From a virus: a stretch of DNA of 64,000 nucleotides. The stretch is taken from IMG/VR virus record IMGVR_UViG_3300028392_000030, positions 64,001 to 128,000 of that record. The stretch is one strand, 5' to 3'. Shown here piece after piece: positions 18,692-42,332 of this stretch (positions are counted from its first letter, which is position 1; each line of letters begins with the position of its first letter). The notes under the pieces were generated by a model. It worked only from the letters and a program-made list of their open reading frames with translations. It was not told where the DNA came from and searched no databases. The translations under genes were made by a program, and so were the position numbers.

Positions 18692-18703
18692 ACCTGTTAT
18701 ACT
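18675..18703 (+). promoter_or_regulatory. sigma70-type promoter with extended -10
   Basis: TTGCAA (18675-18680), 17 bp, TGt-TATACT (18698-18703); ATG 6 nt later. Confidence 0.65.
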
Positions 18704-18709
18704 ACTAGT

Positions 18710-25435: not shown

Positions 25436-26451
25436 TCAGCAGTTATACCAGTTGGCAACCACTTGAAGAAGTCATAGTAGGACGAGCCTATACTCCAGAC
25501 TATTTTGATTTTATTGACAACGCACAAGTGCGTAATCAGTTACAACAAATATTAGCCGAGACTGATGAAGATCTTAACAACCTCCAACGCACTATAGAAC
25601 AATACGGTGCAAAGGTCCTTAGACCTACACTGATGTCCAAACAAAATTTTGAACGCCTACAGATTACCGACGACGGTGCACCGTTGCCGCCGCTGACTCC
25701 AAGAGATTGGCAAATTAGTTTAGGACAAAAATTATTGCGTGTCCTTGAAATGCAGGAACTAGACGAAATTTGCGACAAATACTCAGACCAAGTTGTTAAC
25801 CCGCACAAAAACAATTATGATTCAGACTGTATCTTAAACGGCGCCAGTGCCAGTTGTATTGTGCGTGTAGGACGTGATGTGTTCTTTGACAACAGTGATT
25901 ACTTGCGACCCGAGCAAACACGCTGGATCGTAGATAACGTATTAGGACCAGACTATCGCATACACGAAGCTGTGACAGATGGTCACGGTGATGCTGTATT
26001 TGCTATCCTTAAGCCCGGAGTTATATTAAGCAGCAAACACGACATGCATTTACACTTAGCCGAGGACTTTCCGGGTTGGGAAGTTTGTAAAGTTTGGGAT
26101 TCAAGCATCTGGGCTGCAATGGAAGTGGGCAAATTTAAATACACTGCCAATCCTGGCGCTTGGTATGTTCAGGGACAAACTCCTACAGCAGAGTTTACCA
26201 GTTTTGTAGATACCTACTTGAACAAATGGACAGGGTTTGTAGCCGAAACAGTGTTTGATGTCAACTGTTTGGTACTGGATGAAGAAAATGTTATCTTCAG
26301 TGCGTATAATAAACCCGTGTTTGATTTTTGTAAAAAGCACCGAATCAATCCTATCATAAGTGAACTACGACACAGTTACTTTTGGGATGGTGGTATCAGT
26401 TGTTGCACACAAGACCTGCGACGCAGAGGCGGATTAGAAACTTATCTATGA
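25432..26451 (+). CDS. amidinotransferase-family protein, paralog 3
   Basis: SYTSWQPLEEVIVGRA, TPRD, GHGDAVF, FDVNCLVLDEENV, FWDGGISCCT...RRRGGLETYL. Confidence 0.85.
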   Translation: MISSYTSWQPLEEVIVGRAYTPDYFDFIDNAQVRNQLQQILAETDEDLNNLQRTIEQYGAKVLRPTLMSKQNFERLQITDDGAPLPPLTPRDWQISLGQKLLRVLEMQELDEICDKYSDQVVNPHKNNYDSDCILNGASASCIVRVGRDVFFDNSDYLRPEQTRWIVDNVLGPDYRIHEAVTDGHGDAVFAILKPGVILSSKHDMHLHLAEDFPGWEVCKVWDSSIWAAMEVGKFKYTANPGAWYVQGQTPTAEFTSFVDTYLNKWTGFVAETVFDVNCLVLDEENVIFSAYNKPVFDFCKKHRINPIISELRHSYFWDGGISCCTQDLRRRGGLETYL

Positions 26452-27695
26452 CCGTCGACAAGTTATATGCGACATATGGAGAAAAGATGTGTCTTGCTCC
26501 ATTTGTCAATAGCTTTTATTCTACCTGCGGAGTAGTCGATCCAGACCAAACTGTTGCAAACTTTGTGCGTCCTTGTAGTGTTATACAGGCTGGTCCTGAA
26601 TGGAACGTTCAAGATTCGAACATTACTGCGACAAGAAATACTCGGGTTTGGAAAGACCTACGTCAATCTTTTTTAGATGGCCGTATGCCTATGTCATGTG
26701 GCACATGTATCAACGCAGAACGAGTAGGAGCAAGTAGTCCCAGACAACTCAATAACGCATATCTGTTTGAGCATTTAGATATAGATATACTGGAAGAAGT
26801 TCAACGTATAGTTGACGCAGAGTTAACGGCCAACAGCATATATGCATTGGACTACATGCCCAGTAACTACTGTAATTATGCTTGTGTGATGTGTTATTCA
26901 GGCGCCAGTAGTCAACGATATACATTTGACCTTCAACAAGGAAGAAAAATAAAGTATGAAATCAACTCAGTTGATCATGACTTTTTTGATATAATTAAAG
27001 ACGTAAAGATCCTGGGCTTTACCGGCGGTGAAACTATCCTACAGCCCGAAGTCAATCGCTTAATTGATTATGTAATTGAACACGATTTAGCCAAGGACAT
27101 GATTATAACTATCTTAACTAATGCAAGTGACTTTCCTGACCGATTAGTTGAAAAGTTCAAACAGTTTAAACGAGTATTGTATACCGTAAGTATTGATGGT
27201 GTAGGTGCAGTGATAGAATATCAACGCCGCGGAGCACGATGGGACTCTATTGTAGAGAATGTAGCAAAGATACAAGCAAGTCCTGTCCACGAGGTAGTTA
27301 ATCATGTGGTCACTGCTGTTAATATACTCGGTGCCATGGACTTTGTTGATTGGTGCTATAGCAACAATTTAAAGTATACCAGTATCAGTCATGTGTTCCA
27401 AGAACATTTGGGCATCTGTGCCTTGCCACCTGAATTAAAAGCTGTGGCATTAGAAAGATTACATGCCGGCAGGAAACGGTACGAGCATTGGGCAATGCCG
27501 GAATATAGTAATCATGAAAAGGGCCATTATGTGCAGACTATAGATAGACTGATTAGCACTGTAGAAAGCATTGAGTTTAAACCTGCGGCATTAGCAAAGT
27601 TTATCGAGCATATTCGAACAGAAGACTCAGTCAGTAAACGACCACTTTGCAAAGTGGTTCCGGAATGGGCACCTTGGTTTAACTACAAACTTTAA
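26448..27695 (+). CDS. radical SAM protein with N-terminal auxiliary Cys domain
   Basis: CNYACVMC, FTGGET, LTNAS, VSIDG; upstream CLAPF...PCS...CGTC. Confidence 0.85.
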   Translation: MTVDKLYATYGEKMCLAPFVNSFYSTCGVVDPDQTVANFVRPCSVIQAGPEWNVQDSNITATRNTRVWKDLRQSFLDGRMPMSCGTCINAERVGASSPRQLNNAYLFEHLDIDILEEVQRIVDAELTANSIYALDYMPSNYCNYACVMCYSGASSQRYTFDLQQGRKIKYEINSVDHDFFDIIKDVKILGFTGGETILQPEVNRLIDYVIEHDLAKDMIITILTNASDFPDRLVEKFKQFKRVLYTVSIDGVGAVIEYQRRGARWDSIVENVAKIQASPVHEVVNHVVTAVNILGAMDFVDWCYSNNLKYTSISHVFQEHLGICALPPELKAVALERLHAGRKRYEHWAMPEYSNHEKGHYVQTIDRLISTVESIEFKPAALAKFIEHIRTEDSVSKRPLCKVVPEWAPWFNYKL

Positions 27696-29157
27696 CGCCA
27701 TATAACTGTTCAAAACGATCAGCATCTGCTCTATCATTGACCATGGGCTCACCACGTATGTTCAAACTGGTGTTGAGCAACATAGGGCACCCTGTTAACA
27801 CATACCATTTTTCTAACAATTCTCTTATGCCCGAACCGTCTTTCGCCACAGTTTGCACTCGACTGGTGCCATCAACATGACATATAGCAGGAGTAAGGTC
27901 AGGCTGGCGACACTTAGCGACTGACTGCATATAAGGACTATGATGCCAACCCACTGGCATATCAAAATAGTCATTAGCCACCTCAGCCAATATGACCGGG
28001 GCAAACGGCCTAAACTGTTGTCTACGTTTGATCGCATTCACTTTCTCCTTGATCTCGCAGCCTCTAGGGTCTGCAAGGAGGCTACGGTTTCCAAGTGCGC
28101 GGGGGCCGAACTCGGCTCTTCCTGATGCCACTCCGACAATTTTGTCACTAAGAAGCCGGTCCAACAACTCATTAACAGGATAAACACCTGGAATGCAATG
28201 GCCGAGATAACTGTTGTGCCAGTTAATTCTACGCCCAAAAGCCAAAGCGGCAGCACCGAGACTGCTACCAGCGTCACCGGGGCAAGGCATAATCCAGATT
28301 TTGTCAAAGTAATCTCCTAACATACGGTTGGCTGTGCAATTTAAAGCCACCCCACCCATATATACCAGATTATGACTAAATTCAAAGTTTCTAGCACGAA
28401 TCATCACCTGCTTTATAAGATCCTCTGCTACTAATTGTCCAGCAGCTGCAATGTTTTCATTACTAGAACCCTTTAGAAAATCTGCACTCATACCTGTGTG
28501 GAAGTTTTGCTTTAGTCTTATATCACGATCGTTGGCAATCACATGCTTGCGCATGTCGTGATACCATGTGTTGCGACCCCAAGCAGCCATGCCCATGGTA
28601 ATGTATTCTTCGTCTAAGGGATGTAGGCCAACTCGTTCTGTGACAGCACTGTAGAACAACCCTATGCTGTGCGGATAAACCTGTCTCCATAATCTTTTAT
28701 ACCGAGCCACGCCTTTTCGATCATATTCTGCACCCCATATTGATATTGTGTCCCATTCGCCTATTGCATCTATTACTACCACTGTGGCATGATCAAACGG
28801 GCTTGTTTGAAAGCCTGCGGCAGCGTGGCTCAAATGATGATTAAAACTATGCACCTTTGTGGGTTCAATCTGTCCTCCCAGTTGCTTGTGCAGTATTTGC
28901 CGGGTAGTAAGTTTTGACCATTCAATGCCTTGACCTGCGTACCATTGTCTAAATTGTTTGTTCCAAGGACGTTCATAATAGGCCACAATCTCAGGACCAT
29001 ACTCTGCAACTTCGTCTAGCAAACCCTGACAAAAGTCAGCGTCATTTTTCCGTTTACTATAACGTTCTGAATGGCCGGCGAACAATATCTCGCCGCGAGG
29101 ATCGATCACTGTGGCCGCGGCGTCATGAAAGCCGGCACTAATACCTAGGATATTCAT
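27679..29157 (-). CDS. carbamoyltransferase, NodU/CmcH/TobZ family
   Basis: ILGISAGFHDAA, HHLSHAA, DAIGE, GGVALNC, DAGSSLG, EFGPRALGNRS, RPFAP, HVDGTSRVQTV, LNTSLN. Confidence 0.95.
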   Translation of the reverse strand: MNILGISAGFHDAAATVIDPRGEILFAGHSERYSKRKNDADFCQGLLDEVAEYGPEIVAYYERPWNKQFRQWYAGQGIEWSKLTTRQILHKQLGGQIEPTKVHSFNHHLSHAAAGFQTSPFDHATVVVIDAIGEWDTISIWGAEYDRKGVARYKRLWRQVYPHSIGLFYSAVTERVGLHPLDEEYITMGMAAWGRNTWYHDMRKHVIANDRDIRLKQNFHTGMSADFLKGSSNENIAAAGQLVAEDLIKQVMIRARNFEFSHNLVYMGGVALNCTANRMLGDYFDKIWIMPCPGDAGSSLGAAALAFGRRINWHNSYLGHCIPGVYPVNELLDRLLSDKIVGVASGRAEFGPRALGNRSLLADPRGCEIKEKVNAIKRRQQFRPFAPVILAEVANDYFDMPVGWHHSPYMQSVAKCRQPDLTPAICHVDGTSRVQTVAKDGSGIRELLEKWYVLTGCPMLLNTSLNIRGEPMVNDRADADRFEQLYGVKVCS

Positions 29158-29255
29158 TTGTAGATAAATGGATCTCGTTTACGTAGTTCTTTTAGCTTTT
29201 TACGATAGCGTATTTCTAGACGAATTCGATTGTATAAGTTTTTGATCCAGTTCAT
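29154..29255 (-). CDS. 33-aa basic peptide coupled to the carbamoyltransferase (absent from the ORF track)
   Basis: MNWIKNLYNRIRLEIRYRKKLKELRKRDPFIYK; fills the gap exactly, with an ATGA overlap onto the carbamoyltransferase. Confidence 0.75.
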   Translation of the reverse strand: MNWIKNLYNRIRLEIRYRKKLKELRKRDPFIYK

Positions 29256-29256
29256 G

Positions 29257-30309
29257 TCAGTTTCCTTGTTGTAATACTGCTATTTGTTGCGCCATATAGT
29301 CTGAATCGTTCCAACGATATGGATATGTAACTTCTGCATCGCTGGTGCGAATTGCTGTTACATTGAGTCGTGTATTTAACTGGGTCCATATGTCATGATA
29401 ATCTTCTGTGCCAAAACTTTTGAGCAATTTAACTTGACCTACTTGTGGATGTCCAATAGTAAGAGACTTGTCCTCTGGATCAAACCCATTGTTGATTAAC
29501 CAAGTTCTAAAATTGGTCAAGTTACGAGTTTGCCACGGCGCACCAGCTGGATTTTGCGCCCATTCTATATCAAAGTCCCCAGCAGCTTCTGTTTGTGGTT
29601 TTAAGGTTGATGTAGTCAATGAGTCTGTGCGATGCTCAGGGTTGTAATGAGCTTCGTCGACAAATACTTCCCAATGATGTTTGCCCACTGCTTTGTTGAC
29701 TCCTACAAATACCCCGCCGGTTGGTCGGTTGATACTTTCTATGCCAAACAGTTCATAATCATCGTCGTCTAACACAAAGCGTGGACTGTTTAACCAGCAC
29801 ATGAGTTGACTAGGTCGCATCCATTCTGGTGCGGTGTGTTTTTTATTCCAACTCTGGGCCCAACTTTCAAACTCATGACACAGTCCATTTAGTTGCCTGA
29901 TATGCCAGCGTGTTTCACTGTTGGCCTTTGTATAAAATGGGCTCATTTTTCCGCTGACGCCTTGAAGGTCTTCGAAATAACTGTGTAGTCGATTAAAACG
30001 GTCGTGAACAATTTTGCGATTATTATCTAACACTGAGTCTAGTGTAAAGTGATCATCAATTTGATATCCTATGTTTTCAGCATTAATAGCCAAAATACTG
30101 GCATTAATTTGATCTATTAAATAATTACCGTTACGAACACTGTCAGCAAACCCAAAAAAACAGTAGTTCTTTTCCAAGTGATAGTTGTTGGCAACAAGCG
30201 TGTTTAGGCTGGCCAACCATTTGCGACTTAAACTGGAGTCGTATACATCTACGTATACCGTTAGATCTTCTAGGTCTATTTCTACTACATCAAGTAACAA
30301 TCGATTCAT
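29257..30309 (-). CDS. hypothetical protein of the modification cluster
   Basis: Long ORF in the coupled operon; probable start 30309 (track gives 30336); no recognised motif. Confidence 0.75.
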   Translation of the reverse strand: MNRLLLDVVEIDLEDLTVYVDVYDSSLSRKWLASLNTLVANNYHLEKNYCFFGFADSVRNGNYLIDQINASILAINAENIGYQIDDHFTLDSVLDNNRKIVHDRFNRLHSYFEDLQGVSGKMSPFYTKANSETRWHIRQLNGLCHEFESWAQSWNKKHTAPEWMRPSQLMCWLNSPRFVLDDDDYELFGIESINRPTGGVFVGVNKAVGKHHWEVFVDEAHYNPEHRTDSLTTSTLKPQTEAAGDFDIEWAQNPAGAPWQTRNLTNFRTWLINNGFDPEDKSLTIGHPQVGQVKLLKSFGTEDYHDIWTQLNTRLNVTAIRTSDAEVTYPYRWNDSDYMAQQIAVLQQGN

Positions 30310-31585
30310 ACCATTCCAATAGTTCGTTGTCTGCACTCAGTATGTCTTTGAGAGTATAAGTATCACCACGCACCTGTTCTAGTCGCAACACACGTTCTTT
30401 TCCTTTGACTAACCCCGCCGGATATTCCTCAGGCCACTGTTCTGCAAACGTCGGACGATTCTTTAACTGTAACAGTATATCTCTGAGCGCACCTGTATTT
30501 AAGTTGGCTACCAGAGCATCGACCTTTTTATCTAGCAATTGTCTAGGCAGGGCCAACGGACTCATTATAATGTCCGGAGTAAACCCAAATACAACTTTGG
30601 CCAATACGTCTACACCAAGCTCGTGAGCCAATGCTTGTATGTTGGCCACTTCAAATAGTCCAGGCAACGTAAGTGTAAAGTCTATACGCATTTGTCTACG
30701 ATTGGTGGCAACAGCTACACCTTGACGGAAATTCTCTTGCCATTGTTGGTAGTTGAGCCCAGTTCGAATATACTCGCCTACAGCGCCTGTGCCATCCAGA
30801 CTGGCACAAACTTGCCAGTCCCGCAAATGCGCCAAGATGTCACGATAAAGATTAACACCTCGATAATCAACCCTGCTGAGATTAGTATTGTATCTTGCAT
30901 AGACACGCCGACCATCACCTTGATCTACTATTTGTTTCATGTAGCGCCAATGCTGTTCAAACATTAGCGGCTCTCCACCTACCCAGTATATTTCTTCTAC
31001 GCGATGTTCTGCCACTGCTTGGGCAAATTCTGCTTCAATTTGTGTGTCTTGGAACTGACTTATTTCTTCTCGGACTGCAGGTCGCATCCAGTTGTTTTTG
31101 GGATTAGCCCAGTTGATCATGTTGTTGGCACGTTGCTCTGATTCCCAACTACTACTCAGCATATCCCCGCAGGTGCGACATTTAAAGTTACATAAATTAC
31201 TAAAGCGATAATCCCAACTAACTGGCTTGACAGTAGTTGAGCCATCTGCTGCAGTATTTGCCATTGCATCCGCATACTTGTGTGCAAATAGTCGATTAAA
31301 GTAACTACGGTAAACATCTGTGTTCAACAGCTTGTTGTTACATACGTCACATTCTGGTAATGTTTCTCCAGCCATCATTCTACGTCGAACACTTTTCATG
31401 TGTTCACTGTTCCAATGTTGGTCCAGCGAAACTGGATTATACTTACCAGTTCCGGAACTGGTATCTATATACTGTTCAAAACTTTGTGCAGGCTCACGGC
31501 TAGCACAGCACATTCTACGCTCGGTCTGTGGGGAGAGATAGGTATGCGTCCATGGCGCCATGCATAGGTTATCTGGTTTCTGCAT
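30290..31585 (-). CDS. radical SAM protein with N-terminal auxiliary Cys domain
   Basis: CNFKCRTC, WVGGEP, YNTN, ASLDG, YIRTG; upstream CMAPW...MCC...CDVC. Confidence 0.9.
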   Translation of the reverse strand: MQKPDNLCMAPWTHTYLSPQTERRMCCASREPAQSFEQYIDTSSGTGKYNPVSLDQHWNSEHMKSVRRRMMAGETLPECDVCNNKLLNTDVYRSYFNRLFAHKYADAMANTAADGSTTVKPVSWDYRFSNLCNFKCRTCGDMLSSSWESEQRANNMINWANPKNNWMRPAVREEISQFQDTQIEAEFAQAVAEHRVEEIYWVGGEPLMFEQHWRYMKQIVDQGDGRRVYARYNTNLSRVDYRGVNLYRDILAHLRDWQVCASLDGTGAVGEYIRTGLNYQQWQENFRQGVAVATNRRQMRIDFTLTLPGLFEVANIQALAHELGVDVLAKVVFGFTPDIIMSPLALPRQLLDKKVDALVANLNTGALRDILLQLKNRPTFAEQWPEEYPAGLVKGKERVLRLEQVRGDTYTLKDILSADNELLEWYESIVT

Positions 31586-32489
31586 ACGCTAATAAAGGGT
31601 TGATAATTTCTTCTTGTATGCGTTGACAAACTAATGTGCTGTCAAAAAATCTAGCACGATTGTGTTCAATACGTTCCAAAGTTTCAGCTGTATACGGTTC
31701 TTGTGCAAACTCACGCAAATTCTGTTGTATCTTTAGTAAACGATCGGCACCGGCCAATAGGTCATACGATTCATCAAACATGTTATTGTAAGTTACGAAT
31801 CCCTGCGCTTGTATATACTGCAAGGTACCAGGTGCACCTTGTATCTGAAATGGGTGTTGAAAGGCCATGGGTTTAAATGACTTTTCAGTTACAAATGGTA
31901 TGCCGCTGGCCGGCAATTCTTCTGTTGTTTCGACCACTAGACTAAAATAAGTTGAGTTGTACCAGTCTGGACAAAAATATCTTTGCCAATGTATATGATT
32001 GCGTGGAAGATCATTGGGCAATATCTTGTTTCGGTAACTGTAGAGAATACTGTGTAGGTCAGGTGTCATCTGTTCGATCACTCGATCTCTACAGTCATTG
32101 GGTCTGTTAATAGGCATAAATGCCAGGTGTTGATATGTTCTATCGGGTTGGTAGTTTCGATAGCCCAGTTGGTCGTACCACAACGACTCATTATACCAAA
32201 ACCAGTTGGTGTTTAACAAGCAATAGGCCCAGTCGTAATCAGTATCCACTCTTTCCCAAAGATTATTGATCACTACCCGGTGTCCAGATTTAGATAATTG
32301 TTGTGCCCATTGCCGAATAGTTGTGTTGTTTAAATCCACAACATCGATTACGTAAATGTCATTTAGATCTTCTACGCCATTGAATCTACAAGTCTGAAAA
32401 TACGTTTCAAACAACGGTTGTATGTAGTTTGGCCATATCGAGCGCCGAAACGATGGATGCGTGACTAGTTTTACACGATTCATTGTCAT
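31569..32489 (-). CDS. glycosyltransferase-like protein (ET...TEKxxKP family)
   Basis: FSLVVET...VTEKSFKP...HPF...GFVTYNNMFDESYD. Confidence 0.55.
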   Translation of the reverse strand: MTMNRVKLVTHPSFRRSIWPNYIQPLFETYFQTCRFNGVEDLNDIYVIDVVDLNNTTIRQWAQQLSKSGHRVVINNLWERVDTDYDWAYCLLNTNWFWYNESLWYDQLGYRNYQPDRTYQHLAFMPINRPNDCRDRVIEQMTPDLHSILYSYRNKILPNDLPRNHIHWQRYFCPDWYNSTYFSLVVETTEELPASGIPFVTEKSFKPMAFQHPFQIQGAPGTLQYIQAQGFVTYNNMFDESYDLLAGADRLLKIQQNLREFAQEPYTAETLERIEHNRARFFDSTLVCQRIQEEIINPLLAYAETR

Positions 32490-33718
32490 TGCCCGTGTGG
32501 GTTCTCTGGGCTGATATAACCAATCAATTTAGCAAACTCGGGCTGAACTGCGACCAAGTTTTGGCTGCGTCTACGATCTAAGTTGCCAACTTCTCTACGT
32601 AATTGTTCGCCATCTAGACTGGCTCCACGATTCATAAAATCTGCCACACGTCGAAATTCTTCTTGAACGTGGTTTGGAACATCAGCTGCAAGAAGTCGTT
32701 CGGTAATCACTTGTTTAGCATGTTCTGGCAGGCTACTGATACTAAAGAAGTATGCATCGTGCATCATATTCCAGTAGATAAAATCCATCTGTTGTTCTAA
32801 AATCCACAGTGCTACAGTTTCTAAATAGTAAACGTTAAACACATTTATAGTGCAACAAATTTGTAAACGAATATTCTTGTGTTGGCCACGTAGCTCACGG
32901 AACCGAGCAACGTTGTTGACCACTTCGATCCATACTGCATTTGATCTTTGATATTCAAAGCGTTCACCTACATCGTCGATACTGAATGCTATTTCTACTA
33001 TCTTAAAATGCCGCCAAATCTCTTCGGCGTTGTCGGGCCACTGAGTACCGTTGGTGTTGTAATGTATTTCTATATTGCCAGCCAATCCACGATCAACCAG
33101 GCCTTGTAACATGTTAAAATGCTCTTGGATCATAAAAGGTTCGCCGCCGGTAAACTCTATATACTGTATTTGATCCGATATGCCGGCTATTTCGTTCCAA
33201 AACTTTTGATTTTCTCTGGGCCAAGCGCCTTGACGCAGCATATGATAATGATGATTATCTTTTCTATCTTCATTACGCATTAGATGCTGTAGTTCTTCAG
33301 CAGCATACGTGCTGGAACTCCACGAGCCGCAGATGCGACATTTAAGATTGCAAATATTACCCAATTTAAGATCAACAAACATCAAGGGTTTTGCATCCGC
33401 AGTCCAATCTTGATCGGGCAACATGTGTTTAAGACGATCTAATGTGTGCATACGTTTGCTGGTGCGGCCAGCACGTTCTTCCTTCCAACACTTGCGACAT
33501 GTGTTGGGTTGTTTGCCATCAACAAATTCCTGACGCAGTGCTCGCATGTTGGCACTGTTTTGTATTGCTTTAAAATCAGCAGTGGCCAAATTAAACTTGT
33601 CGCCAGCATCATCTACCAATTCATCGTCGGCTAAACAACAAGGACGCACAGTACCAATAGGACTGGCTTCTAAACTGACCCAAGGTAATACGCAAAATTT
33701 ATCGTGTGGTATTTTCAT
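32486..33718 (-). CDS. radical SAM protein with N-terminal auxiliary Cys domain
   Basis: CNLKCRIC, FTGGEP, YNTNG, FSIDD; upstream CVLPW...PCC...CRKC. Confidence 0.9.
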   Translation of the reverse strand: MKIPHDKFCVLPWVSLEASPIGTVRPCCLADDELVDDAGDKFNLATADFKAIQNSANMRALRQEFVDGKQPNTCRKCWKEERAGRTSKRMHTLDRLKHMLPDQDWTADAKPLMFVDLKLGNICNLKCRICGSWSSSTYAAEELQHLMRNEDRKDNHHYHMLRQGAWPRENQKFWNEIAGISDQIQYIEFTGGEPFMIQEHFNMLQGLVDRGLAGNIEIHYNTNGTQWPDNAEEIWRHFKIVEIAFSIDDVGERFEYQRSNAVWIEVVNNVARFRELRGQHKNIRLQICCTINVFNVYYLETVALWILEQQMDFIYWNMMHDAYFFSISSLPEHAKQVITERLLAADVPNHVQEEFRRVADFMNRGASLDGEQLRREVGNLDRRRSQNLVAVQPEFAKLIGYISPENPHGQ

Positions 33719-35043
33719 CTAAGCGGTATCCTTGTGTCTCGGGGTCGATATTCCGCAATGGCTGCCAGTTCTGGAACTACACTCAATAAACTTTCTGAGC
33801 GGCTCCAATCTAAATCATTGACAGTTTCCCAAAAGCGCGGCAACAAATGACTGTTGTCTGTGGCCATCATAAAGGCAATTGCACCTTCAAAACCGCCGAT
33901 AGCTCGGTGTATAGGATCTTTGTCTTGTAACCACGCAATATGCTGTTCAAACTCCTGTTTAAATTGCAATTTAATAGGCATAGGCAACAGATCAATTCTA
34001 TAATTATCTGGTCCTTGCAAGATGTTTAGATTAAAATCTTTGGCCTGAATAAAGCCAGACTCCACCATGTAACGATGGAATCGTGTAAAATTCCAAATGT
34101 TCATTATGCTGAGTGTGGGACTAATCATAAAGTCAATGTGCGGGCATTCGCGTTTGAGGTCTCGTATGTTTTGTTCTACCTGCGCCCAATCAGTGCCCGA
34201 GCGTATAATAGCTGCACGGTCGCCCATGTCATCCAAACTGGCTGCTACACAGATAGTAGGAAAATGCTTCCACAAGTCCAACACATTTTGTTTTTTAAAT
34301 TTAAGTTCAGTCAAATTGGTGTTGTAGACCAAACGCACACGAGTGTTGCCTTTTTTAATCAGCAATTTAAGTATGCGATTGTGTTCTTCCATGATCAAGG
34401 GTTCGCCGCCGGCAAAGTATATTTGATCCAGATGTGGCACATGCTCTTGCATTTGTTCCCAAACATCTTCTTCGTGACGCCCAGCAAATTGCACACGTGG
34501 GCGCAGTTCCTTACCCCACAGTCGAACATCATCGTCGTACCACCGGCTTGAGAATATGCTGCCACAACTGCGACATTTGAGATTGCATATATTACTGAAG
34601 CGCACATCCCAATAGTGTAACCGCATATCGGGCAAACTACCATCAGGCAAAGTATTGTTAATTTCTGCAACATGGTGACCGAAACTCTTGTTGCTGTTGT
34701 TGCGCATACTGGTAAAGCCAGCGGCTTCTTGTTCGTAACAGTCTCCACACTCTAAGCAAGGTTTGTCCTCCAGCATGTTTTGACGCATCAACCGCATAGG
34801 ATCATCATTCCATATTTCACGCATACTCTTTTCTTTAAAGTTACCCACCGGATGTTTAGCTCGACCCAAACAGCACGGATAAGCCCTACCATCCGGCCAA
34901 GCATGTAAATGTATCCAAGGTAACATACAGAAGTTTTCAGACTCCATTAACCGGTAACGTTGTTCTTCAGTTAGCTCTTCTAATTTGATATAATTAGGTA
35001 TGCGATCTTTCCAATTGTATTTGCCTATAATTTTATCAGTCAT
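33715..35043 (-). CDS. radical SAM protein with N-terminal auxiliary Cys domain
   Basis: CNLKCRSC, FAGGEP, YNTN, ASLDD; upstream CMLPW...PCC...CGDC. Confidence 0.9.
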   Translation of the reverse strand: MTDKIIGKYNWKDRIPNYIKLEELTEEQRYRLMESENFCMLPWIHLHAWPDGRAYPCCLGRAKHPVGNFKEKSMREIWNDDPMRLMRQNMLEDKPCLECGDCYEQEAAGFTSMRNNSNKSFGHHVAEINNTLPDGSLPDMRLHYWDVRFSNICNLKCRSCGSIFSSRWYDDDVRLWGKELRPRVQFAGRHEEDVWEQMQEHVPHLDQIYFAGGEPLIMEEHNRILKLLIKKGNTRVRLVYNTNLTELKFKKQNVLDLWKHFPTICVAASLDDMGDRAAIIRSGTDWAQVEQNIRDLKRECPHIDFMISPTLSIMNIWNFTRFHRYMVESGFIQAKDFNLNILQGPDNYRIDLLPMPIKLQFKQEFEQHIAWLQDKDPIHRAIGGFEGAIAFMMATDNSHLLPRFWETVNDLDWSRSESLLSVVPELAAIAEYRPRDTRIPLR

Positions 35044-36371
35044 AGTGTATCATACCAGGTTTTTAATACAGGAAAGGTTTCAACAAAATTTTTACCACGT
35101 CGTTGATCGTATTGTTGATGAAACTGTTTAAAGTCGTTGTGTAGTTTGGGCATTTCAAATGTGTCGCTGTGCGGGGTTTTAACACGATCCAAATACTCAA
35201 TCAGTCTGCTGAGATGATTGATTTCATGTTCGTGCATATATAATTGATCCTGGTGTTGGGTTACCCACATGATCAATCGATTGCGATAATACAGCAACAG
35301 GTGTTCTGGTAGAACCAATGGGCTTTGAAAACTAGGGAAACGCAGAATATTAAGAGTAAAACTCACACGCTCGCGTCCGTACATTTTCTTCAGTTCAACC
35401 AGTTTGTCTAACAGGGTATCTAGACTGTTGAGACACAGTGCATTGATGGTACACATACAATGCACCGCACGAATACAGTCAGACTCGAGTAATTTCTCTA
35501 CGTTCTGTAACCAAGCAGGGTAGTCCAGCCCATCTCGAATATACTCGGCTTGATCGTCAACAGCTTCCATGGATGTATAGATATCTACTTCTAAACCCGT
35601 GATGCTGTCTAACAAGCGGTCTACATCTACGTCTACACCTAAGTTGCTGTTGATAGCCAGGCGTGTTGTGCTCTTGCCTTGATTGTTTTTAAACCAATCC
35701 AGCAGTTTCCAAGTCTCGCCCGACATGAGTGGCTCACCGCCGGTGATTCTTAGCTCTTGGAGTGTTTGATGGAGGTCGGATTCCCACCACTTAAAGAACG
35801 CTTCAACATACGGATTTGTCTCACCAAACCGGTATAGTTGAGCACTATCGTGGCTGTGAGTAAAGTGGTTACGCCCATCAGACACCAGGCGCTCATAAGG
35901 GCCGTTTCGCTTGATATCGTTAACCCATGTGCTGCTGAAAGCAGGGTTACAATAGCTACAAGCAAATTGGCAAGTGCGGTCGAATGCGATTTCAAGCGTT
36001 CGAAGATTGACATCTTCTTGACTGGGTGTGTTGTATGCTTCATTTAATGACTCCAATGGATAAATTTTACTTTTGTATACACGGTCGCTGACGGCATCTA
36101 CGCCCATGTCTTCAATCTTCCAACAGTATTCACAACCTGCGGGACGATTACCAGCCTGCATCATAGCACGATCCAATTTTTTAGTTGGAGTATTGTGTAT
36201 GGCTCGAGGATTTGTTTTTAATGCTTCTCGATCTATTGCGTGTGCTGGAGGGTGATGACAACTGGTACTCTGTCCTGAGCCCAACCATATAGTAGCGTTG
36301 TACCATTTGGCCGCGCAAAAGCTGGCACTTTTAGTGTCAAGAACTTGTTGACGAAACTCTAGATCATTCAT
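35040..36371 (-). CDS. radical SAM protein with N-terminal auxiliary Cys domain
   Basis: CQFACSYC, ITGGEP, INSN, YIRDG; upstream CAAKW...SCHHP...CEYC. Confidence 0.9.
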   Translation of the reverse strand: MNDLEFRQQVLDTKSASFCAAKWYNATIWLGSGQSTSCHHPPAHAIDREALKTNPRAIHNTPTKKLDRAMMQAGNRPAGCEYCWKIEDMGVDAVSDRVYKSKIYPLESLNEAYNTPSQEDVNLRTLEIAFDRTCQFACSYCNPAFSSTWVNDIKRNGPYERLVSDGRNHFTHSHDSAQLYRFGETNPYVEAFFKWWESDLHQTLQELRITGGEPLMSGETWKLLDWFKNNQGKSTTRLAINSNLGVDVDVDRLLDSITGLEVDIYTSMEAVDDQAEYIRDGLDYPAWLQNVEKLLESDCIRAVHCMCTINALCLNSLDTLLDKLVELKKMYGRERVSFTLNILRFPSFQSPLVLPEHLLLYYRNRLIMWVTQHQDQLYMHEHEINHLSRLIEYLDRVKTPHSDTFEMPKLHNDFKQFHQQYDQRRGKNFVETFPVLKTWYDTL

Positions 36372-37129
36372 TGTGCGTAAGTCTCAGTATTTTCTATTTC
36401 TTTAACAACAATATCTGCCCATAATTTTCCTGCTCGAGCATCAGGGTGTATATTGTCGCTCCTGTATAAATTTCGATCTTTTGCAAGTTCAAAAATTCCA
36501 TTTTTTGCAGCGTCAGTGAATGTAAATTTGTCAAAATTAATTTTATCTATCAATACATCTAATTCTAAATTTTTAACACTTGGATATTCAAATCCATTTT
36601 CAAAATAACTATCGTTCCAATAGTTCATAAAACTCATAAATCTATAATTGATATTTTTTGATTCCAACCATGACTGTAGTTTCAACATGTTCAACAGCGA
36701 CTGAAACACCAGCTCTCTTATTCCACCAAATTTTATAATCGGTTTGGCTATGTCCGACATTGGAAATTTAGGATTATCTCCAATACCGCAGTGTCCATAA
36801 TACACGTCTAATTCATTACGATTTTTAAACTTCCAAAATTGTCCCCAGGTCATCTCATTGATTGCCATATCAATCCTGGTCAAGCCACTCCACATGATCA
36901 ACACCAAATCATAATCAAACTTTATGGTGTTTACTATGGTTGAATCACATATCCACTGGTTACCTGCAGCAAAACTGGCTATGTTTGTTACTTTCCAATC
37001 GGAAGGTAAATGTTCAGGCCAATTTTTATGACTGGATTGTGCATTGCCCTCTGAGGCAGTAAAACTACAACCGTTGACCAAAACTTTTTTTGTTTTAGGA
37101 AAATTTTGTTTAAACTCTAAACTATTCAT
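36368..37129 (-). CDS. SGNH/GDSL-hydrolase-like protein (possible O-acyl esterase/transferase)
   Basis: Block I VNGCSF, block II AAGNQWI, block V DNIHP. Confidence 0.65.
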   Translation of the reverse strand: MNSLEFKQNFPKTKKVLVNGCSFTASEGNAQSSHKNWPEHLPSDWKVTNIASFAAGNQWICDSTIVNTIKFDYDLVLIMWSGLTRIDMAINEMTWGQFWKFKNRNELDVYYGHCGIGDNPKFPMSDIAKPIIKFGGIRELVFQSLLNMLKLQSWLESKNINYRFMSFMNYWNDSYFENGFEYPSVKNLELDVLIDKINFDKFTFTDAAKNGIFELAKDRNLYRSDNIHPDARAGKLWADIVVKEIENTETYAQ

Positions 37130-37725
37130 ATTATTTCCCTTAGACGAGATAATACTTCATCGTATGCTGTAATTTTAGGAAAGCGATCAATATCAGATCC
37201 ACTTAAATCTGGTTCAATTTTTTCGTAAGACAAGGTAGTGTCAAAATATTCTTTGCAGTCATTCCACACAGCCAGAGTTTCGCGCACAGTTTGAACAAAT
37301 GGTAATAATTGCCCATTGGTCAACTGCAACGCAAAATCACGGCTGGCGAATACAGAATCGGCATTTCTATCCTGCTGCCATTTTCCTAAACGATACGATA
37401 TAGCGTAACTCAATGCTTGAGCCGCAATATCTTCTCGATACAATCCAATTATATAAGAGTTATTAAACAAAGAATCCCATTGGTCTTCTGGAGGCATATG
37501 ATTTGGCATAATTTTTACTATGCTCTGCTGAGCAGAATCATATACATGCGGCCTTGACGAGTGATTGTAATGAAACACTTCTCCTAAAAAAGGCAATCCA
37601 GTAATTTTACTCAACAGGTTTCCAAAGGCGGTGCTGCCAGTTCGGTAATTGGCCATTAACACTATACTCCAGTTGCCTGGAATTTCAAACTCGTGGTTGG
37701 TAAGTGTTATCTTAAAGTCGTTCAT
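37126..37725 (-). CDS. sulfotransferase-like (Stf0-like) P-loop protein
   Basis: YRTGST (5'-PSB-like), R-E-D...AQALS (3'-PB-like), LSYEKI. Confidence 0.55.
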   Translation of the reverse strand: MNDFKITLTNHEFEIPGNWSIVLMANYRTGSTAFGNLLSKITGLPFLGEVFHYNHSSRPHVYDSAQQSIVKIMPNHMPPEDQWDSLFNNSYIIGLYREDIAAQALSYAISYRLGKWQQDRNADSVFASRDFALQLTNGQLLPFVQTVRETLAVWNDCKEYFDTTLSYEKIEPDLSGSDIDRFPKITAYDEVLSRLREII

Positions 37726-38906
37726 TTGATATATTGATTGATAAATTTGTGGAACTGATTGGGTAACTCTCTAGGAACTTGGTGCCGCATTTCGGTATAC
37801 AATGCTTGGTTGTATTTACATACATTATAACACTCTTTGTAGAAACTTGCAAGGTCTTGTTGACACAAGTCTTCAACCACTTTGGCTATACGTTCAATTC
37901 GATCTTGACTACTATCTATTAGATCAAACGATTCGTCTACCACATGACCAAATGTTCGAAATCCTAGATTCTGTATATCTCGATAAAAACCACGATTGGC
38001 CACAGCTATAAATGGATGTCCTACAGCAATGGGTTTCCAAATCTTTTCTGTTCTAAAACTGTATGGGTAATTGAACACTGTTTCGGTTACCAGACTAAAG
38101 TAAGTATCTCTATATGCCGAGCCATCAACTACAGCATCGCCCCAAGTATTGTTAAACAAGTTAAATTTAACAGTACCAGCAGAGGGCAAATGATCTATGT
38201 TGTTTCTAAATGCAGGTGTTTCATACTGTTTGGGTAACAAGTGTAGATCAATTGGCCGTTCCATGCGATCTGTACCATCTTGGTCAAACGTCAATTTGAT
38301 CACGTTCATGTTGTTAAAATTCTGCCAACGTGCCTGCGGCAAAGTTGTTACTAATCTAAGATCAGTGTCAAGGTTTGTCCATAGACTTTGGTCTAACAAG
38401 TTGTTTACTTGGAATCTTTCCAACAGATATTTTCTATGGCTACGCATACGGCCATTTAGAAACAAGAACTTGTATGGCTTATTGGTAATTGCAAAATATT
38501 CATCTATACGGTTGCCTGCCTCAACATTTTCGTCAAAGTCAAATATCTTAGGTAAAAAATATTCATAACTCATGTAGGGCCATTTTTCAGGATCCATGGC
38601 GCCGCCACCGATTAACAGTATTCGACCTTCTTCAATCAGATTGATTAGTCCTTTGACAAAGCACCAAGTGACCAGTGTTTCACTTCCTTCTGCAGCATTG
38701 TCTAATATCACTGTCACTTGTCCTGTGCGAGCTAGCTCTTGTATTTCATAATTATAGTTATTGACCTGTTCTCTGCACATGACATACACAGCACCTGGAA
38801 CTATTTTATGTTGCTTGATATCCCAAAACTCACCGTCGGCCCAAGGTAATAATTCTCTATATACTTCGCTGTGTGTGTCTAATATAAGTTTATGATTTCC
38901 TAGCAT
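37722..38906 (-). CDS. glycosyltransferase-like protein (ET...TEKxxKP family)
   Basis: FSLVTET...RTEKIWKP...HPFI...GFRTFGHVVDESFD. Confidence 0.55.
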   Translation of the reverse strand: MLGNHKLILDTHSEVYRELLPWADGEFWDIKQHKIVPGAVYVMCREQVNNYNYEIQELARTGQVTVILDNAAEGSETLVTWCFVKGLINLIEEGRILLIGGGAMDPEKWPYMSYEYFLPKIFDFDENVEAGNRIDEYFAITNKPYKFLFLNGRMRSHRKYLLERFQVNNLLDQSLWTNLDTDLRLVTTLPQARWQNFNNMNVIKLTFDQDGTDRMERPIDLHLLPKQYETPAFRNNIDHLPSAGTVKFNLFNNTWGDAVVDGSAYRDTYFSLVTETVFNYPYSFRTEKIWKPIAVGHPFIAVANRGFYRDIQNLGFRTFGHVVDESFDLIDSSQDRIERIAKVVEDLCQQDLASFYKECYNVCKYNQALYTEMRHQVPRELPNQFHKFINQYIK

Positions 38907-39830
38907 TTATAATTGTTCTTTGAAATAATTAATGGTTTTGAGTAGCCCTTGGTCGAGATCAATCTCTGGGCGCCAACCCAATAAAGTGTTGGCTAAATTA
39001 ATGTCTGGCCGGCGTTGTTTAGGATCATCTGCGATAGGCGGCAAATGTATTATGCTACTCAAGGATTCTGTTAACTTGATTATTTTTTTAGCCATATCAA
39101 TCATTGTGTATTCACTAGGGTTGCCAATATTGACCGGACCTATTTCTCCTGAGTTCATTAGAGCTATTAGTCCTCTCACAGTGTCAGACACATAGCAAAA
39201 TGAACGAGTTTGCAATCCTTTGCCATAAACAGTTAAGTCCTGATTGGTCAATGCTTGCATAATAAAATTACTAATTACTCGGCCATCATTCTTTGACAAG
39301 TGTGGACCAAATGTATTGAATATCCTAGCAATTTTAATATCAACGTGGTGTTCTTTGTGATAGTTTATAAAAAGACTTTCAGCACAACGTTTGCCCTCGT
39401 CATAACAGCTCCTTATTCCTAAAGGATTTACATTTCCCCAATAATCCTCTGTTTGGGGCGATACCAGTGGATCTCCATAAACTTCGGAGGTGCTGGTTTG
39501 TAATATGCGAGCTCCGGTGTTGTGTGCCAATTTTAACATATTAATTGCACCTAACACACACGTCTGGATTGTATTAACTGGATCTTTTTGATACCACTTT
39601 GGGCTTGCCGGGCAGGCCAAATTATAAATTTGATCTACAGCAAGTGTTATGGGTTCTTTTACATCGTGTTTAATGAAATCAAATCTAGGATGGTCGCGCA
39701 GTAATTTAATATTGTCAAGACTGCTTGATAGTAAATTATCTAAACAATAAACAGTATGGTCCATTGCTAATAGTTCACGGCATAAATGACTTCCAATAAA
39801 CCCGCTACCACCAGTAACTAATATTTTCAT
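38907..39830 (-). CDS. UDP-glucuronate decarboxylase (UXS/ArnA-DH-like SDR)
   Basis: ILVTGGSGFIGSHL, YNLACPASP, TSTSEVYGDP, RSCYDEGKR, ARIFNTFGP, TRSFCYVSD, DDPKQRRPDI. Confidence 0.85.
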   Translation of the reverse strand: MKILVTGGSGFIGSHLCRELLAMDHTVYCLDNLLSSSLDNIKLLRDHPRFDFIKHDVKEPITLAVDQIYNLACPASPKWYQKDPVNTIQTCVLGAINMLKLAHNTGARILQTSTSEVYGDPLVSPQTEDYWGNVNPLGIRSCYDEGKRCAESLFINYHKEHHVDIKIARIFNTFGPHLSKNDGRVISNFIMQALTNQDLTVYGKGLQTRSFCYVSDTVRGLIALMNSGEIGPVNIGNPSEYTMIDMAKKIIKLTESLSSIIHLPPIADDPKQRRPDINLANTLLGWRPEIDLDQGLLKTINYFKEQL

Positions 39831-41239
39831 TGCTGGCTCCAATAGCGACATTCTGCCCACCAAGCTGTCATCTCAGGAAATGTCTTTAAAAAATCAGTTC
39901 CGTGTCTACGATCCGCTTCAGCAAAGAAGCGATAAAAGTCTGCTTTGTTACGATTGATATGTGCAGGATCCAACCGTTGCCCGTCGCGCATCCATGCAAT
40001 GTCTCTATCCAGTCTGGCAATTTCATAATCCTTAAAACCTTGAAATCTTGTCTCTTCTGTTTCAATGTTCTTCATCATGAATGCCCAGACCAGTTCGAGT
40101 TGGTCTACATAACTTTCTGGCAATAGTTGTAGGCTTTGCCATGTGGGTTGACGCAATACCGGAGTATCAAACCATATGCGTTGATATGTCGTGCTGTAGA
40201 TTTTTCTAAGTCCCAAGATACCACTGAACAGTTTGCCTAGCCCTGTTACACTGAGATTATTCATGGTAACAATAAAGGTAATTGAATTACGTCCAGGAAT
40301 ATCTGTTAGAAATTGATTAACACGATCCCACAGTAAACCAAAATCTAACCCATGTCTGATGTATTCAGCCTGTTCCATCCACGAATCTAAACTAACAAAT
40401 TGCATGAAGTGTTCAATCTTTTCGCCTTCACATAATTCTTTAACATAGCCCTTATACTTCTGCCAACTTTTTTCATCTACACTGAAGTTTGACGTTACAT
40501 TTAGATGTAAGTCGGGTTTGGGATTGGCCAACACATAGTCAAATACACGATAGGTGTTCTTGTCTAACAAGGGCTCACCGCCGGTCATGCGGAAGTGTTG
40601 TAGTTCTAGATACAGGGTTGGCCACCACTCCCAGAAAGCATCTACATAAGGGTTGTCTTCACGAACTGGTATAGGCCTATTACGGCCAACAAAATGACTA
40701 GGATCGTTATGAGGAGATGAGGTAGGGTAAGCTCCAAATCTCTCGGTTTCCGCTTGCCAACTGCTACTAAATTGCGGACTACAGTAGGAACACACAAGAT
40801 TACAAGCGTGATTAAAATTAACTTCAACATAGCTAGGAATAACATCTTCATCTCCATTTGAATTTACTACAACATCAAAGTCTTTGGCGGCCCAAGGTTC
40901 GCCCGAACGATAGTGACGGTCGCTTAACTTATTATTGTCTTCCATGGTCCAGCAATAGCTACACTCGCTAGGACGTTCTTGCTTTAACATAATCTTACGT
41001 TGTTCTTTCTTGTAAGGAGTATTATGTAATGCTGACGGATTGTCCGTTAATAGTTCTGCTGGTATTGCATGTAAGGGCGGATGGTAACAACTGTTGTTCA
41101 GTCCTGTAGGCAAGTGTAGACTAACTTGTTTCCACTTGGCCAAGCAAAGTGCAGTACCAAGATTTGCCTTCATGAACTCTGCATCGCCTAGGAACTTTGA
41201 TTTAAAGTCGATTGCAACTTCATCGCCTTTGTTATTCAT
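39827..41239 (-). CDS. radical SAM protein with N-terminal auxiliary Cys domain
   Basis: CNLVCSYC, MTGGEP, VTSN, YIRHG; upstream CLAKW...SCYHP...CSYC; closest to 35040-36371. Confidence 0.9.
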   Translation of the reverse strand: MNNKGDEVAIDFKSKFLGDAEFMKANLGTALCLAKWKQVSLHLPTGLNNSCYHPPLHAIPAELLTDNPSALHNTPYKKEQRKIMLKQERPSECSYCWTMEDNNKLSDRHYRSGEPWAAKDFDVVVNSNGDEDVIPSYVEVNFNHACNLVCSYCSPQFSSSWQAETERFGAYPTSSPHNDPSHFVGRNRPIPVREDNPYVDAFWEWWPTLYLELQHFRMTGGEPLLDKNTYRVFDYVLANPKPDLHLNVTSNFSVDEKSWQKYKGYVKELCEGEKIEHFMQFVSLDSWMEQAEYIRHGLDFGLLWDRVNQFLTDIPGRNSITFIVTMNNLSVTGLGKLFSGILGLRKIYSTTYQRIWFDTPVLRQPTWQSLQLLPESYVDQLELVWAFMMKNIETEETRFQGFKDYEIARLDRDIAWMRDGQRLDPAHINRNKADFYRFFAEADRRHGTDFLKTFPEMTAWWAECRYWSQQ

Positions 41240-42332
41240 ATTCGTGATTTCGTAAAATGTTGTCAATGGCAAAAGATTTAAACGGCAATAATTTAAATAA
41301 TTTTTCGCCTCGTAAATTATCCAACAGCAATATGTGTGCAATGGTCTGTTGAAACAAAACTTGATTAATATTGTTGCTAATCAAATTTCTGATGTGCAAT
41401 ATTGTATTATTGTCAATGTTATGATTGTGTTCAAGTTGATCAACTTTATCCAAGGCCAATGATTTCAATGATTCAGGTATTACATCCAACGCCAGATAAT
41501 CTGGCCCTGTCAGTATAATCAAATTGATAGAGATATTATTTAATTTGGCATAATCGTACAAGTCGTTGATAAACCAAATATTTAAAATACTTAATACCGG
41601 ACTGAGAGTAACGTTAATATTTGAGTCGTGTGTGATTGTCAATAACTTTTGTAAATTTGAGTTTATTTTCTCCCAATTGGTTCCAGATCGAATATATTCC
41701 AATGGCTCGCCAACAGCATCTATACTGCACTGTATATTAACTTGTTTAAATTTTTTCCAGAGATCAATGATATTTTTATCTTTATATTTTATTGTAGTTA
41801 GATTGGTGTTATACATTAGTTCTATCTTGCTGGCTTGTCCGCTGTCAACCAGTTCGTCGAGCAATGCCCAGTGTTCGCTATTGATCAATGGTTCGCCGCC
41901 GGTAAAATACATCCATTGCAAGGAGCCAGTGAATAGTATGTCTTTGTAATTGGCCAGATCTTGATTTTCTATAATAGGAAATCTACCAAGCTCTTCAGCC
42001 CATTGGCTGCTAAAATGTGGCCCGCAATACCTACATTTTAAATTGCAAAGATTGGTATTCCTAATGTCAACAAATTGTAAGCCCGGAGCTGCTGTTACTT
42101 TTTTATTAAATCCATTTCTATAGCTGGATAATCCATGGTATTCTGCCACTGCACATTTATTACACGGGTGGTCTGGTGGGCAGTCTTGAGTTTTTAAATC
42201 TACGAATCTGTTTGGATTTGATAATTCAGATATGGGCTTGGAGTAACTGCTGTCAATTTGACAACAAGGACCAATTTTCCCATTGGGGAAAACGGTTACT
42301 CCGTGATCAATTGCCGCACAAGTCCAGGTCAC
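41232..42332 (-). CDS. radical SAM protein with N-terminal auxiliary Cys domain, AT-rich
   Basis: CNLKCRYC, FTGGEP, YNTN, CSIDA, YIRSG; upstream CAAI...PCC...CNKC. Confidence 0.9.
   Translation of the reverse strand: MTWTCAAIDHGVTVFPNGKIGPCCQIDSSYSKPISELSNPNRFVDLKTQDCPPDHPCNKCAVAEYHGLSSYRNGFNKKVTAAPGLQFVDIRNTNLCNLKCRYCGPHFSSQWAEELGRFPIIENQDLANYKDILFTGSLQWMYFTGGEPLINSEHWALLDELVDSGQASKIELMYNTNLTTIKYKDKNIIDLWKKFKQVNIQCSIDAVGEPLEYIRSGTNWEKINSNLQKLLTITHDSNINVTLSPVLSILNIWFINDLYDYAKLNNISINLIILTGPDYLALDVIPESLKSLALDKVDQLEHNHNIDNNTILHIRNLISNNINQVLFQQTIAHILLLDNLRGEKLFKLLPFKSFAIDNILRNHEYE

Follow-up and report, generated by a model that had tools for sequence, protein, structure and literature searches.

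Why should a phage carry a row of radical S-adenosylmethionine (SAM) enzymes, each with a cysteine-bearing domain placed in front of its catalytic core? The question is raised by bases 64001–128000 of the 197-kb IMG/VR record IMGVR_UViG_3300028392_000030 (CheckV completeness 57%), the source of which is an uncultured giant lake phage; these 64,000 nucleotides are referred to here as the window. Eight open reading frames (ORFs) in the window, two on the plus and six on the minus strand, contain the CxxxCxxC motif of radical SAM enzymes. Five of them (39827, 35040, 33715, 32486 and 30290, genes being named by their first coordinate in Table 1) constitute, as judged by sequence comparison, a fixed set, anciently diverged and without redundancy, whose members are inherited together as a module. 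The architecture of the proteins had been catalogued before; the module, its sharing with bacteria and the genes that travel with it are absent from the literature searched, and they suggest what the set may do.

All eight proteins possess four N-terminal cysteines, spaced C-x17-18-C-x33-52-CxxC, ahead of the core, with about 35–55 residues between the N-terminal CxxC and the core CxxxCxxC. Alignment of the eight leaves invariant the first cysteine, the CxxC, the three core cysteines and a GGE motif, together with an N, an S and an R of the core; the second cysteine is shifted by one column in some rows. C153, C157, C160, G212, G213 and E214 are invariant both in this and in a 98-sequence alignment. 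After the core no cysteine is conserved among the eight, and the C-terminal 80–130 residues are helical; the first-pass annotation of this DNA had already noted the lack of a Cys-rich C-terminus. The 35040 protein has four further cysteines (Cys 299, 305, 307, 313) that might have held a third cluster; this idea was rejected, since the orthologs of the protein (72–77% identity) lack these residues and conserve seven cysteines only. On the evidence of the alignments, the SAM-binding and two-cluster motifs are intact in all copies, and both predicted sites would be expected to bind iron-sulphur (Fe-S) clusters.

The proteins belong to NCBIfam family NF033640 (N_Twi_rSAM, "twitch domain-containing radical SAM protein"; curated cut-off 170 bits), which all eight match at 210.5–404.1 bits from about model positions 1–3 to 386–398. 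Pfam SPASM (PF13186) scores above its gathering score, N-terminal of Radical_SAM, in three of the eight. In the 33715 protein, the best NF033640 match, SPASM covers residues 39–102 and Radical_SAM residues 148–306, and residues 50–116 align, in weaker NCBIfam matches, with StsB, NirJ and NirJ2 at their C-terminal SPASM regions. Because of these matches, the N-terminal domain can be regarded as a homolog of the auxiliary-cluster domain that is usually C-terminal; the earlier description of it as SPASM/Twitch-like is borne out. Its four-cysteine pattern is that of a fully ligated Twitch cluster.

SPASM and Twitch domains have been defined as C-terminal extensions (PMC9012708). The classical SPASM/Twitch subgroup (SFLD 17, RadicalSAM.org Megacluster-1-1) accordingly carries the domain at the C-terminus (PMC9012708, PMC9477430), whereas here it is N-terminal. 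RadicalSAM.org remarks in passing that some members of the SPASM/Twitch megacluster have extra cysteines N-terminal to the barrel, and that structures of such members are nonexistent (PMC9477430). Compared with NF033640, the eight show the same order of Twitch domain, radical SAM core and helical tail, the same seven cysteines and no family-level differences. The Twitch-before-core architecture is real but already catalogued, and so not new. The first-pass annotation had asked whether a family of this architecture was already characterised, and the answer is divided: it is curated as NF033640 and remarked on by RadicalSAM.org, but no biochemically tested member, assigned reaction or solved structure was found in the searched literature and PDB. 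The same literature yielded no paper on "N-terminal SPASM", "N-terminal twitch", NF033640 or the model name, and papers carrying the NF033640 product name deal with other enzymes. New relative to it are the module of five subfamilies, the fact that jumbo phages and Bdellovibrionota share it, and its linkage to amidino- and carbamoyltransferases.

The 33715 protein was chosen for modelling with AlphaFold (AF2), using a 98-sequence alignment from a full HMMER scan. The model has a predicted local distance difference test score (pLDDT) of 93.4 and a predicted template modelling score (pTM) of 0.91, compared with a pLDDT of 32 for single-sequence AlphaFold. It consists of an N-terminal hairpin-plus-helices domain (residues ~37–130), the radical SAM core (~143–350) and a C-terminal helical bundle (355–432). 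In structure comparison with the PDB (Foldseek and an exhaustive VIA-align search) only the core finds matches. The best is BlsE (cytosylglucuronate decarboxylase, PDB 7vob) at Z 12.6, and the cores of CteB, SkfB, the anaerobic sulfatase-maturating enzyme (anSME), MoaA and viperin lie at Z 11–12; BlsE, CteB, SkfB and anSME together span Z 11.8–12.6 with 211–230 aligned residues (model residues ~142–400). These four belong to the same SPASM/Twitch subgroup, with their auxiliary domains C-terminal to the core. Sequence identity to the best-matching solved cores is 14–18%, and a profile search of PDB sequences gave distant radical SAM cores only. The whole fold recurs in BFVD, in about 20 uncultured-phage proteins with template modelling (TM) scores up to 0.89. 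Two proteins of cultured T4-like vibriophages, both named "MoaA/nifB/pqqE family protein", Q6WHP4 of Vibrio phage KVP40 and I6XCF1 of phi-pp2, have predicted structures there that align near full length with the model (TM 0.53–0.71) and are a structural lead only, though a possible laboratory handle on the family.

The first-pass annotation had placed the eight genes correctly, but eight is an undercount for the phage, as the whole 197-kb contig holds 11 family members above the cut-off and a weaker twelfth; divergent copies outside the window include 77472 and -40789. The record contains no Fe-S assembly, ferredoxin or flavodoxin genes. Three of the copies in the window stand apart from the set of five. 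The 41232 gene is an insert specific to the source phage, and related loci lack a copy at that position. An ortholog of 26448 occurs in some relatives only (for example L019, at 75% identity); its reading frame is open from a TTG at 26382, with an ATG at 26448. The 4577 protein is extended at its N-terminus by an additional domain of about 125 residues, which gave zero matches, PDB sequences included. Among the five, the 39827 gene has its probable ATG start at 41239.

The five core paralogs are old. Identity is 21–32% between paralogs as against 66–86% between phage orthologs. In a maximum-likelihood tree (87 rows, quick search, LG+G4; the weak twelfth copy and locus ORFs below E 1e-20 omitted) the copies of the window are not monophyletic. 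Instead, each core paralog falls in its own strongly supported clade, made up of phage orthologs and one particular copy from bacterial arrays, among them an eight-gene array of a Bacteriovoracaceae metagenome-assembled genome (MAG; L075) and a four-gene array of an Oligoflexia MAG (L034). Thus the 39827 clade (support 99) includes the Bacteriovoracaceae array copy, the 35040 clade (support 100) copies from L034, L075 and L026, and the 30290 clade (support 100) copies from L026 and L075; 32486 has a clade of its own with phage and bacterial copies (support 98). The 41232, 4577, 77472 and -40789 copies sit on long branches and their placement is unsure. Because the clades are paralog-specific and unite phage with bacterial copies, the five-subfamily set is older than its spread and moves as a module; by the same sequence measures each core paralog is under long-term conservation. 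Of the subgroups proposed from motifs in the first-pass annotation, the CxxKW..SCxHP pair (35040, 39827) is recovered as a fully supported clade. The CxxP[WF]..CC trio (30290, 32486, 33715) does share its motif but divides into three separate clades. The idea that the family had expanded in the phage did not survive the tree, which shows old lineages shared with bacteria and not a phage-specific expansion.

Conservation of the module was followed through 29 IMG/VR loci with related arrays. Five of these sit in genomes of 317–344 kb, two with terminal repeats, and each such genome has 7–10 family members above the cut-off; the clade is one of T4-like freshwater phages of roughly 320–345 kb. Orthologs of 39827 occur in all 29 loci at 67–86% identity, and those of 33715, at 80% identity or more, in hundreds of metagenome contigs. 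The shared gene order starts with the fibre-like gene 47556, the Ser/Thr-rich 46489, the paralogs 45303 and 44546, then 43925 and 43009, and continues through the radical SAM gene 39827, then 37722, the radical SAM genes 35040, 33715, 32486 and 30290, then 29257 and the carbamoyltransferase gene 27679; on the convergent strand lie the amidinotransferase gene 25378 and 24317. The fibre-like genes precede the module in the same order in 21–22 of the 29. Against this shared frame, the source phage has its own inserts: radical SAM gene 41232 with 42329, the short-chain dehydrogenase/reductase (SDR) gene 38907, and 37126, 36368 and 31569. Megablast of the region against GenBank phages gave no match, and tblastn found the family in just four cultured or partial phage records; Vibrio phage K566/K567 and Ralstonia phage RsoM2USA are cultured carriers. 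Two contigs of a "Haliscomenobacter sp." RefSeq MAG, L032 (NZ_JBBAKG010000001.1, 183 kb) and L033 (NZ_JBBAKG010000003.1, 148 kb), show the phage gene order including the fibre-like genes; to judge from that order they are probably jumbo-phage DNA binned with a bacterium, or else a hint of the host.

Since the ORFs from 43941 down to 29257 overlap or abut, usually by 4 bases, they would be expected to form one translationally coupled unit. The operon closes with a carbamoyltransferase gene present in 26 of the 29 phage loci and in eight bacterial loci, and it faces the convergent amidinotransferase gene, present in 19 of the 29 and 83–88% identical in related phages. The window holds three amidinotransferase paralogs (7747–8748, 20458–21477 and 25378–26451) with mutual identities of 30–34%. 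There is no enrichment of the T4 late-promoter word TATAAATA, and sigma-70 and terminator scans gave results at chance level.

The same family is widespread in bacteria. NF033640 comprises about 1,400 clusters (50% identity) at E 1e-30 or better. A species-level genome collection has members in Bdellovibrionota, Elusimicrobiota, Bacteroidota, Paenibacillus and further groups, frequently as tandem copies, and arrays are common in Bdellovibrionota and Elusimicrobia. Sampling of 121 Bdellovibrionota genomes found the family in 26, at up to 11 copies per genome; one seven-gene array lies within a contig of more than 2.6 Mb, which argues that the Bdellovibrionota arrays are chromosomal. Proximity was read by eye from tables and is given as raw counts: of 10 Bdellovibrionota genomes, six have a gene of the carbamoyltransferase family no more than 20 kb from their N_Twi genes, and four have a DegT aminotransferase gene next to them or at most 5 kb away. 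A sugar-nucleotide SDR stands beside single N_Twi copies in eight Bacteroidota loci, and two family-bearing loci of that phylum examined in detail contain genes for SGNH hydrolase, glycosyltransferase family 4 (GT4), GT2-like, HTTM and PhyH proteins. Sel1 fusions and one GT2 fusion (P0202) also occur. The family is probably functionally diverse; its array-forming subset is linked to enzymes that add nitrogen or carbamoyl groups to hydroxylated small molecules, typically sugars.

Two bacterial cases differ from the arrays just described. A 2.9-Mb Elusimicrobia MAG (G007; contigs L072, L083, L094, L103 and others) has more than 50 NF033640 copies, far exceeding any of the phages, and most are fused C-terminally to long tetratricopeptide repeat (TPR) arrays, giving proteins of 560–1,200 residues that lie head to tail. 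In Paenibacillus (L084, L080) a single N_Twi gene sits between acyl carrier protein and ketoreductase genes, in a cluster with two ketosynthases, a GT2, a thioesterase and a phosphopantetheinyl transferase; this setting suggests that the branch uses an acyl or glycolipid substrate.

We propose that the array genes carry out stepwise radical tailoring of one sugar-like substrate, either a nucleoside diphosphate (NDP)-sugar or a glycan, and give this reading about an even chance of being right. Sugar-like editing seems the most likely activity because a fixed set of enzymes travels with amidino- and carbamoyltransferases behind tail-fibre genes. A sugar-type substrate is our best guess from gene context; we infer the class of substrate, the chemistry and the target as follows. 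The [4Fe-4S] site at CxxxCxxC would cleave SAM to give the 5'-deoxyadenosyl radical, with which each enzyme would abstract hydrogen from its own specific position on a common scaffold. The four conserved Twitch cysteines would fully ligate one auxiliary [4Fe-4S] cluster. A cluster fully ligated by Cys has no means of binding the substrate directly; its role would therefore be that of electron acceptor or conduit, which is the proposal made for BtrN (PMC9012708), and this would favour net oxidations (hydroxyl to ketone), epimerisations or related redox steps. The resulting ketones would pass to DegT aminotransferases and the resulting amines to amidinotransferases, while remaining hydroxyls would be substrates for the NodU-type carbamoyltransferase. 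The product may then decorate the virion fibre or the surface of the infected cell, given the position of the module behind the fibre genes; this destination is the weakest link of the proposal.

The closest precedent for such chemistry is BtrN, the butirosin 2-deoxy-scyllo-inosamine dehydrogenase and founding Twitch enzyme. Its reaction suits a partnership with a DegT aminotransferase, and its cysteine spacing presumably resembles the C-x17-18-C-x33-52-CxxC of the phage proteins. In BtrN and anSME the auxiliary site is some 13–17 Å away from the radical SAM site. The likeness has limits: the BtrN Twitch domain is C-terminal to the core, no close sequence relationship is detectable, and BtrN is not among the structural matches listed. 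BtrN has one four-Cys auxiliary [4Fe-4S] cluster, to be set beside the four Twitch cysteines here, and that cluster has been proposed as the electron acceptor in a sugar-type oxidation (PMC9012708). For the setting, the nearest parallel is found in pelagimyophages, where cassettes of glycosyltransferase and radical SAM genes lie downstream of a giant structural gene, beside the genes for tail fibres (Zaragoza-Solas et al. 2020, PMC7029224). Both are T4-like aquatic myophages with the genes in a tail-fibre hypervariable setting; the cassettes are mentioned there in passing, without analysis of family, architecture or function, and are likened here by location.

Besides the carbamoyltransferase and DegT linkage and the conserved amidinotransferase, we count in favour of the proposal the SDR and glycosyltransferase loci of Bacteroidota, the GT2 fusion, and one DegT, two SDR and one cytidylyltransferase gene in the window. 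Several observations weigh on the other side. (i) The structural ranks of BlsE, CteB, SkfB and anSME are tied; therefore they do not reveal the substrate class, sugar or peptide. (ii) The nearest sugar-nucleotide genes (SDR 38907, 36368, 37126) are variable, being present in 0–6 of the 29 loci. (iii) A glycosyltransferase reading of the conserved module proteins depends on weak leads, and Pfam GT2, GT8 and GT10 match nowhere in the contig. (iv) In none of the 10 Bdellovibrionota genomes does a Wzx flippase gene lie near the N_Twi genes. (v) Repeats of the TPR or Sel1 type are fused to many family members, an indication of protein partners, and the Paenibacillus member sits in an acyl carrier protein/ketosynthase cluster. 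(vi) Bacterial neighbourhoods are heterogeneous, and a pooled Pfam tally of 143 neighbour proteins has no dominant partner.

Table 1 Radical SAM genes of the window and the genes around them.
Feature	Coordinates	Strand	Matches and conservation
N_Twi radical SAM, core paralog 1, CxxKW..SCxHP type	39827..41341	-	NF033640 293.5 bits
N_Twi radical SAM, core paralog 2, CxxKW..SCxHP type	35040..36371	-	NF033640 293.7 bits
N_Twi radical SAM, core paralog 3, CxxPW..CC type	33715..35043	-	NF033640 404.1 bits
N_Twi radical SAM, core paralog 4	32486..33718	-	NF033640 344.6 bits; SPASM N-terminal
N_Twi radical SAM, core paralog 5	30290..31585	-	NF033640 289 bits
N_Twi radical SAM, divergent accessory copy, short Twitch	41232..42332	-	NF033640 247.7 bits
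N_Twi radical SAM, accessory copy, convergent strand	26448..27695	+	NF033640 224.7 bits
N_Twi radical SAM, distant copy	4577..6094	+	NF033640 210.5 bits over residues 126-498
NodU/CmcH-type carbamoyltransferase, last gene of the operon	27679..29157	-	Pfam Carbam_trans_N and Carbam_trans_C
Amidinotransferase	25378..26451	+	phmmer against PDB: AGAT 6e-17, StrB1 1e-11, SxtG 2e-10
Conserved protein with DGD motif	43009..43941	-	mean identity 80% across 21 phages
Protein between radical SAM genes	37722..38906	-	29/29 phage loci
Conserved module protein	29257..30336	-	25/29 phage loci
SDR, NDP-sugar 4,6-dehydratase/epimerase-like	38907..39863	-	Pfam Epimerase, GDP_Man_Dehyd
Two paralogous proteins with conserved LDAD motif	44546-45319, 45303-46112	-	own alignment, invariant D100
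Ser/Thr/Gly-rich protein, directly upstream of the module	46489-47466	-	
Fibre-like protein	47556-48845	-	PHROG virion structural and tail fibre matches

The conserved proteins of the module that lie between and around the radical SAM enzymes have no significant match to PDB sequences in profile searches, and none in PHROGs or NCBIfam. For the 43009 protein, which has no Pfam or PDB sequence match, the Atlas neighbour cluster is automatically named GT2-like, and glycosyltransferase is a lead only. The same is true of a GT-A-like assignment for the 44546/45303 pair, where the NleB match (E 0.56) is non-significant, and of GT10 for the 37722 protein, a weak Atlas language-model lead (0.80). A glycosyltransferase label for these proteins was dropped, since the contig lacks matches to the three Pfam glycosyltransferase families named above. 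The 29257 protein has no family or PDB match. A C-terminal domain of about 100 residues is common to the products of 16956–18026, 24317–25435, 31569–32489 and 37722–38906, and at least one protein with this domain accompanies the array in all 29 phage loci. The best NCBIfam match of the 38907 SDR, dTDP-glucose 4,6-dehydratase, falls below the model cut-off; the gene is a variable insert found in one of the 29 phage loci, yet in eight Bacteroidota loci.

Further out, directly upstream of the fibre-like genes, comes a minus-strand ORF (49680–63998) of more than 4,700 residues, cut off by the edge of the window; its middle part is similar to virion structural proteins from three jumbo phages, Atu_ph07, PA5oct and Phosso. 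On the plus strand a ThyX thymidylate synthase gene (18023–19183) adjoins that of a small cytidylyltransferase-like protein, and the two head the plus-strand cluster of SDR, amidinotransferase and DegT genes. The window also encodes a MoxR-type AAA ATPase (2467–3555) and, at 9861–11150, a DUF2201 metallopeptidase/VWA protein; such proteins are often paired in large phages.

Direct modification of a protein or peptide is the alternative that stands up best, although we hold it to be rather unlikely. The enzymes would then act on the Ser/Thr-rich or fibre-like virion proteins, or on an unrecognised precursor, and introduce cross-links, epimerise residues or oxidise side chains, as do anSME and the maturases of peptides that are ribosomally synthesised and post-translationally modified (RiPPs). 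Peptides or proteins are indeed the substrates of most characterised SPASM/Twitch enzymes, and three of the best core matches, CteB, SkfB and anSME, are level with BlsE. The module follows fibre-like genes, and fusions to the protein-binding TPR and Sel1 repeats are frequent in the family, most copies of the Elusimicrobia MAG included. However, neither a RiPP recognition element (RRE) nor PqqD appears among the Pfam and NCBIfam matches of the eight proteins, though divergent RREs could escape these models, and the N-terminus is already occupied by the Twitch domain. The gaps read contain no conserved small Cys- or Ser-rich precursor ORF, though a distant precursor is possible. The enzymes that recur with the array, carbamoyl-, amidino- and aminotransferases, typically act on small molecules or sugars.

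The same transferases could instead serve a free small molecule bearing guanidino or carbamoyl groups, of the aminoglycoside, aminocyclitol or saxitoxin type, with the host or competitors as its target. StrB1 and SxtG are both homologs of the amidinotransferase, and with a TobZ/NodU-type carbamoyltransferase, a DegT aminotransferase and BtrN-like Twitch radical SAM enzymes the ingredients are suggestive; a cyanophage paper labels a similar trio "antibiotic synthesis genes" (PMC12801897), and the bacterial arrays have no Wzx flippase nearby. Nevertheless we consider such a product quite improbable. Because six phage genomes, two of them complete, lack 2-deoxy-scyllo-inosose synthase/dehydroquinate synthase and inositol-phosphate synthase, the aminocyclitol idea is weakened; no polyketide synthase or exporter was seen, and a place behind tail-fibre genes suits a virion or surface role better. 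Hypermodification of bases in DNA or RNA, perhaps by making a modified sugar or attaching one to DNA, is very improbable: T4-like phages are known for sugar-modified DNA, ThyX and the cytidylyltransferase are encoded in the neighbouring plus-strand cluster, and the nucleotide-acting viperin and MoaA are among the nearest cores, but the module showed no signature of a base-hydroxymethylase or DNA glycosyltransferase, bacterial chromosomes carry the same set of five subfamilies, and the linkage is to fibre genes and not to replication genes.

Stepwise tailoring of a sugar-like scaffold is thus the reading we prefer. It can be taken further, although we think the extension unlikely: a mobile five-enzyme relay, shared by aquatic jumbo phages and predatory Bdellovibrionota, might make a new polycationic guanidino/carbamoyl glycan, or a free aminoglycoside-like compound, for deployment on fibres or against the host or competitors.

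Five diverged paralogs that move as a unit imply a multi-step radical pathway, sited among host-recognition genes. Abundant jumbo phages of fresh and marine waters and several bacterial phyla carry the family in multiple copies, and solving one member would give chemistry to thousands of genes. It would also tell whether an auxiliary cluster placed at the front of the enzyme works like a C-terminal one.

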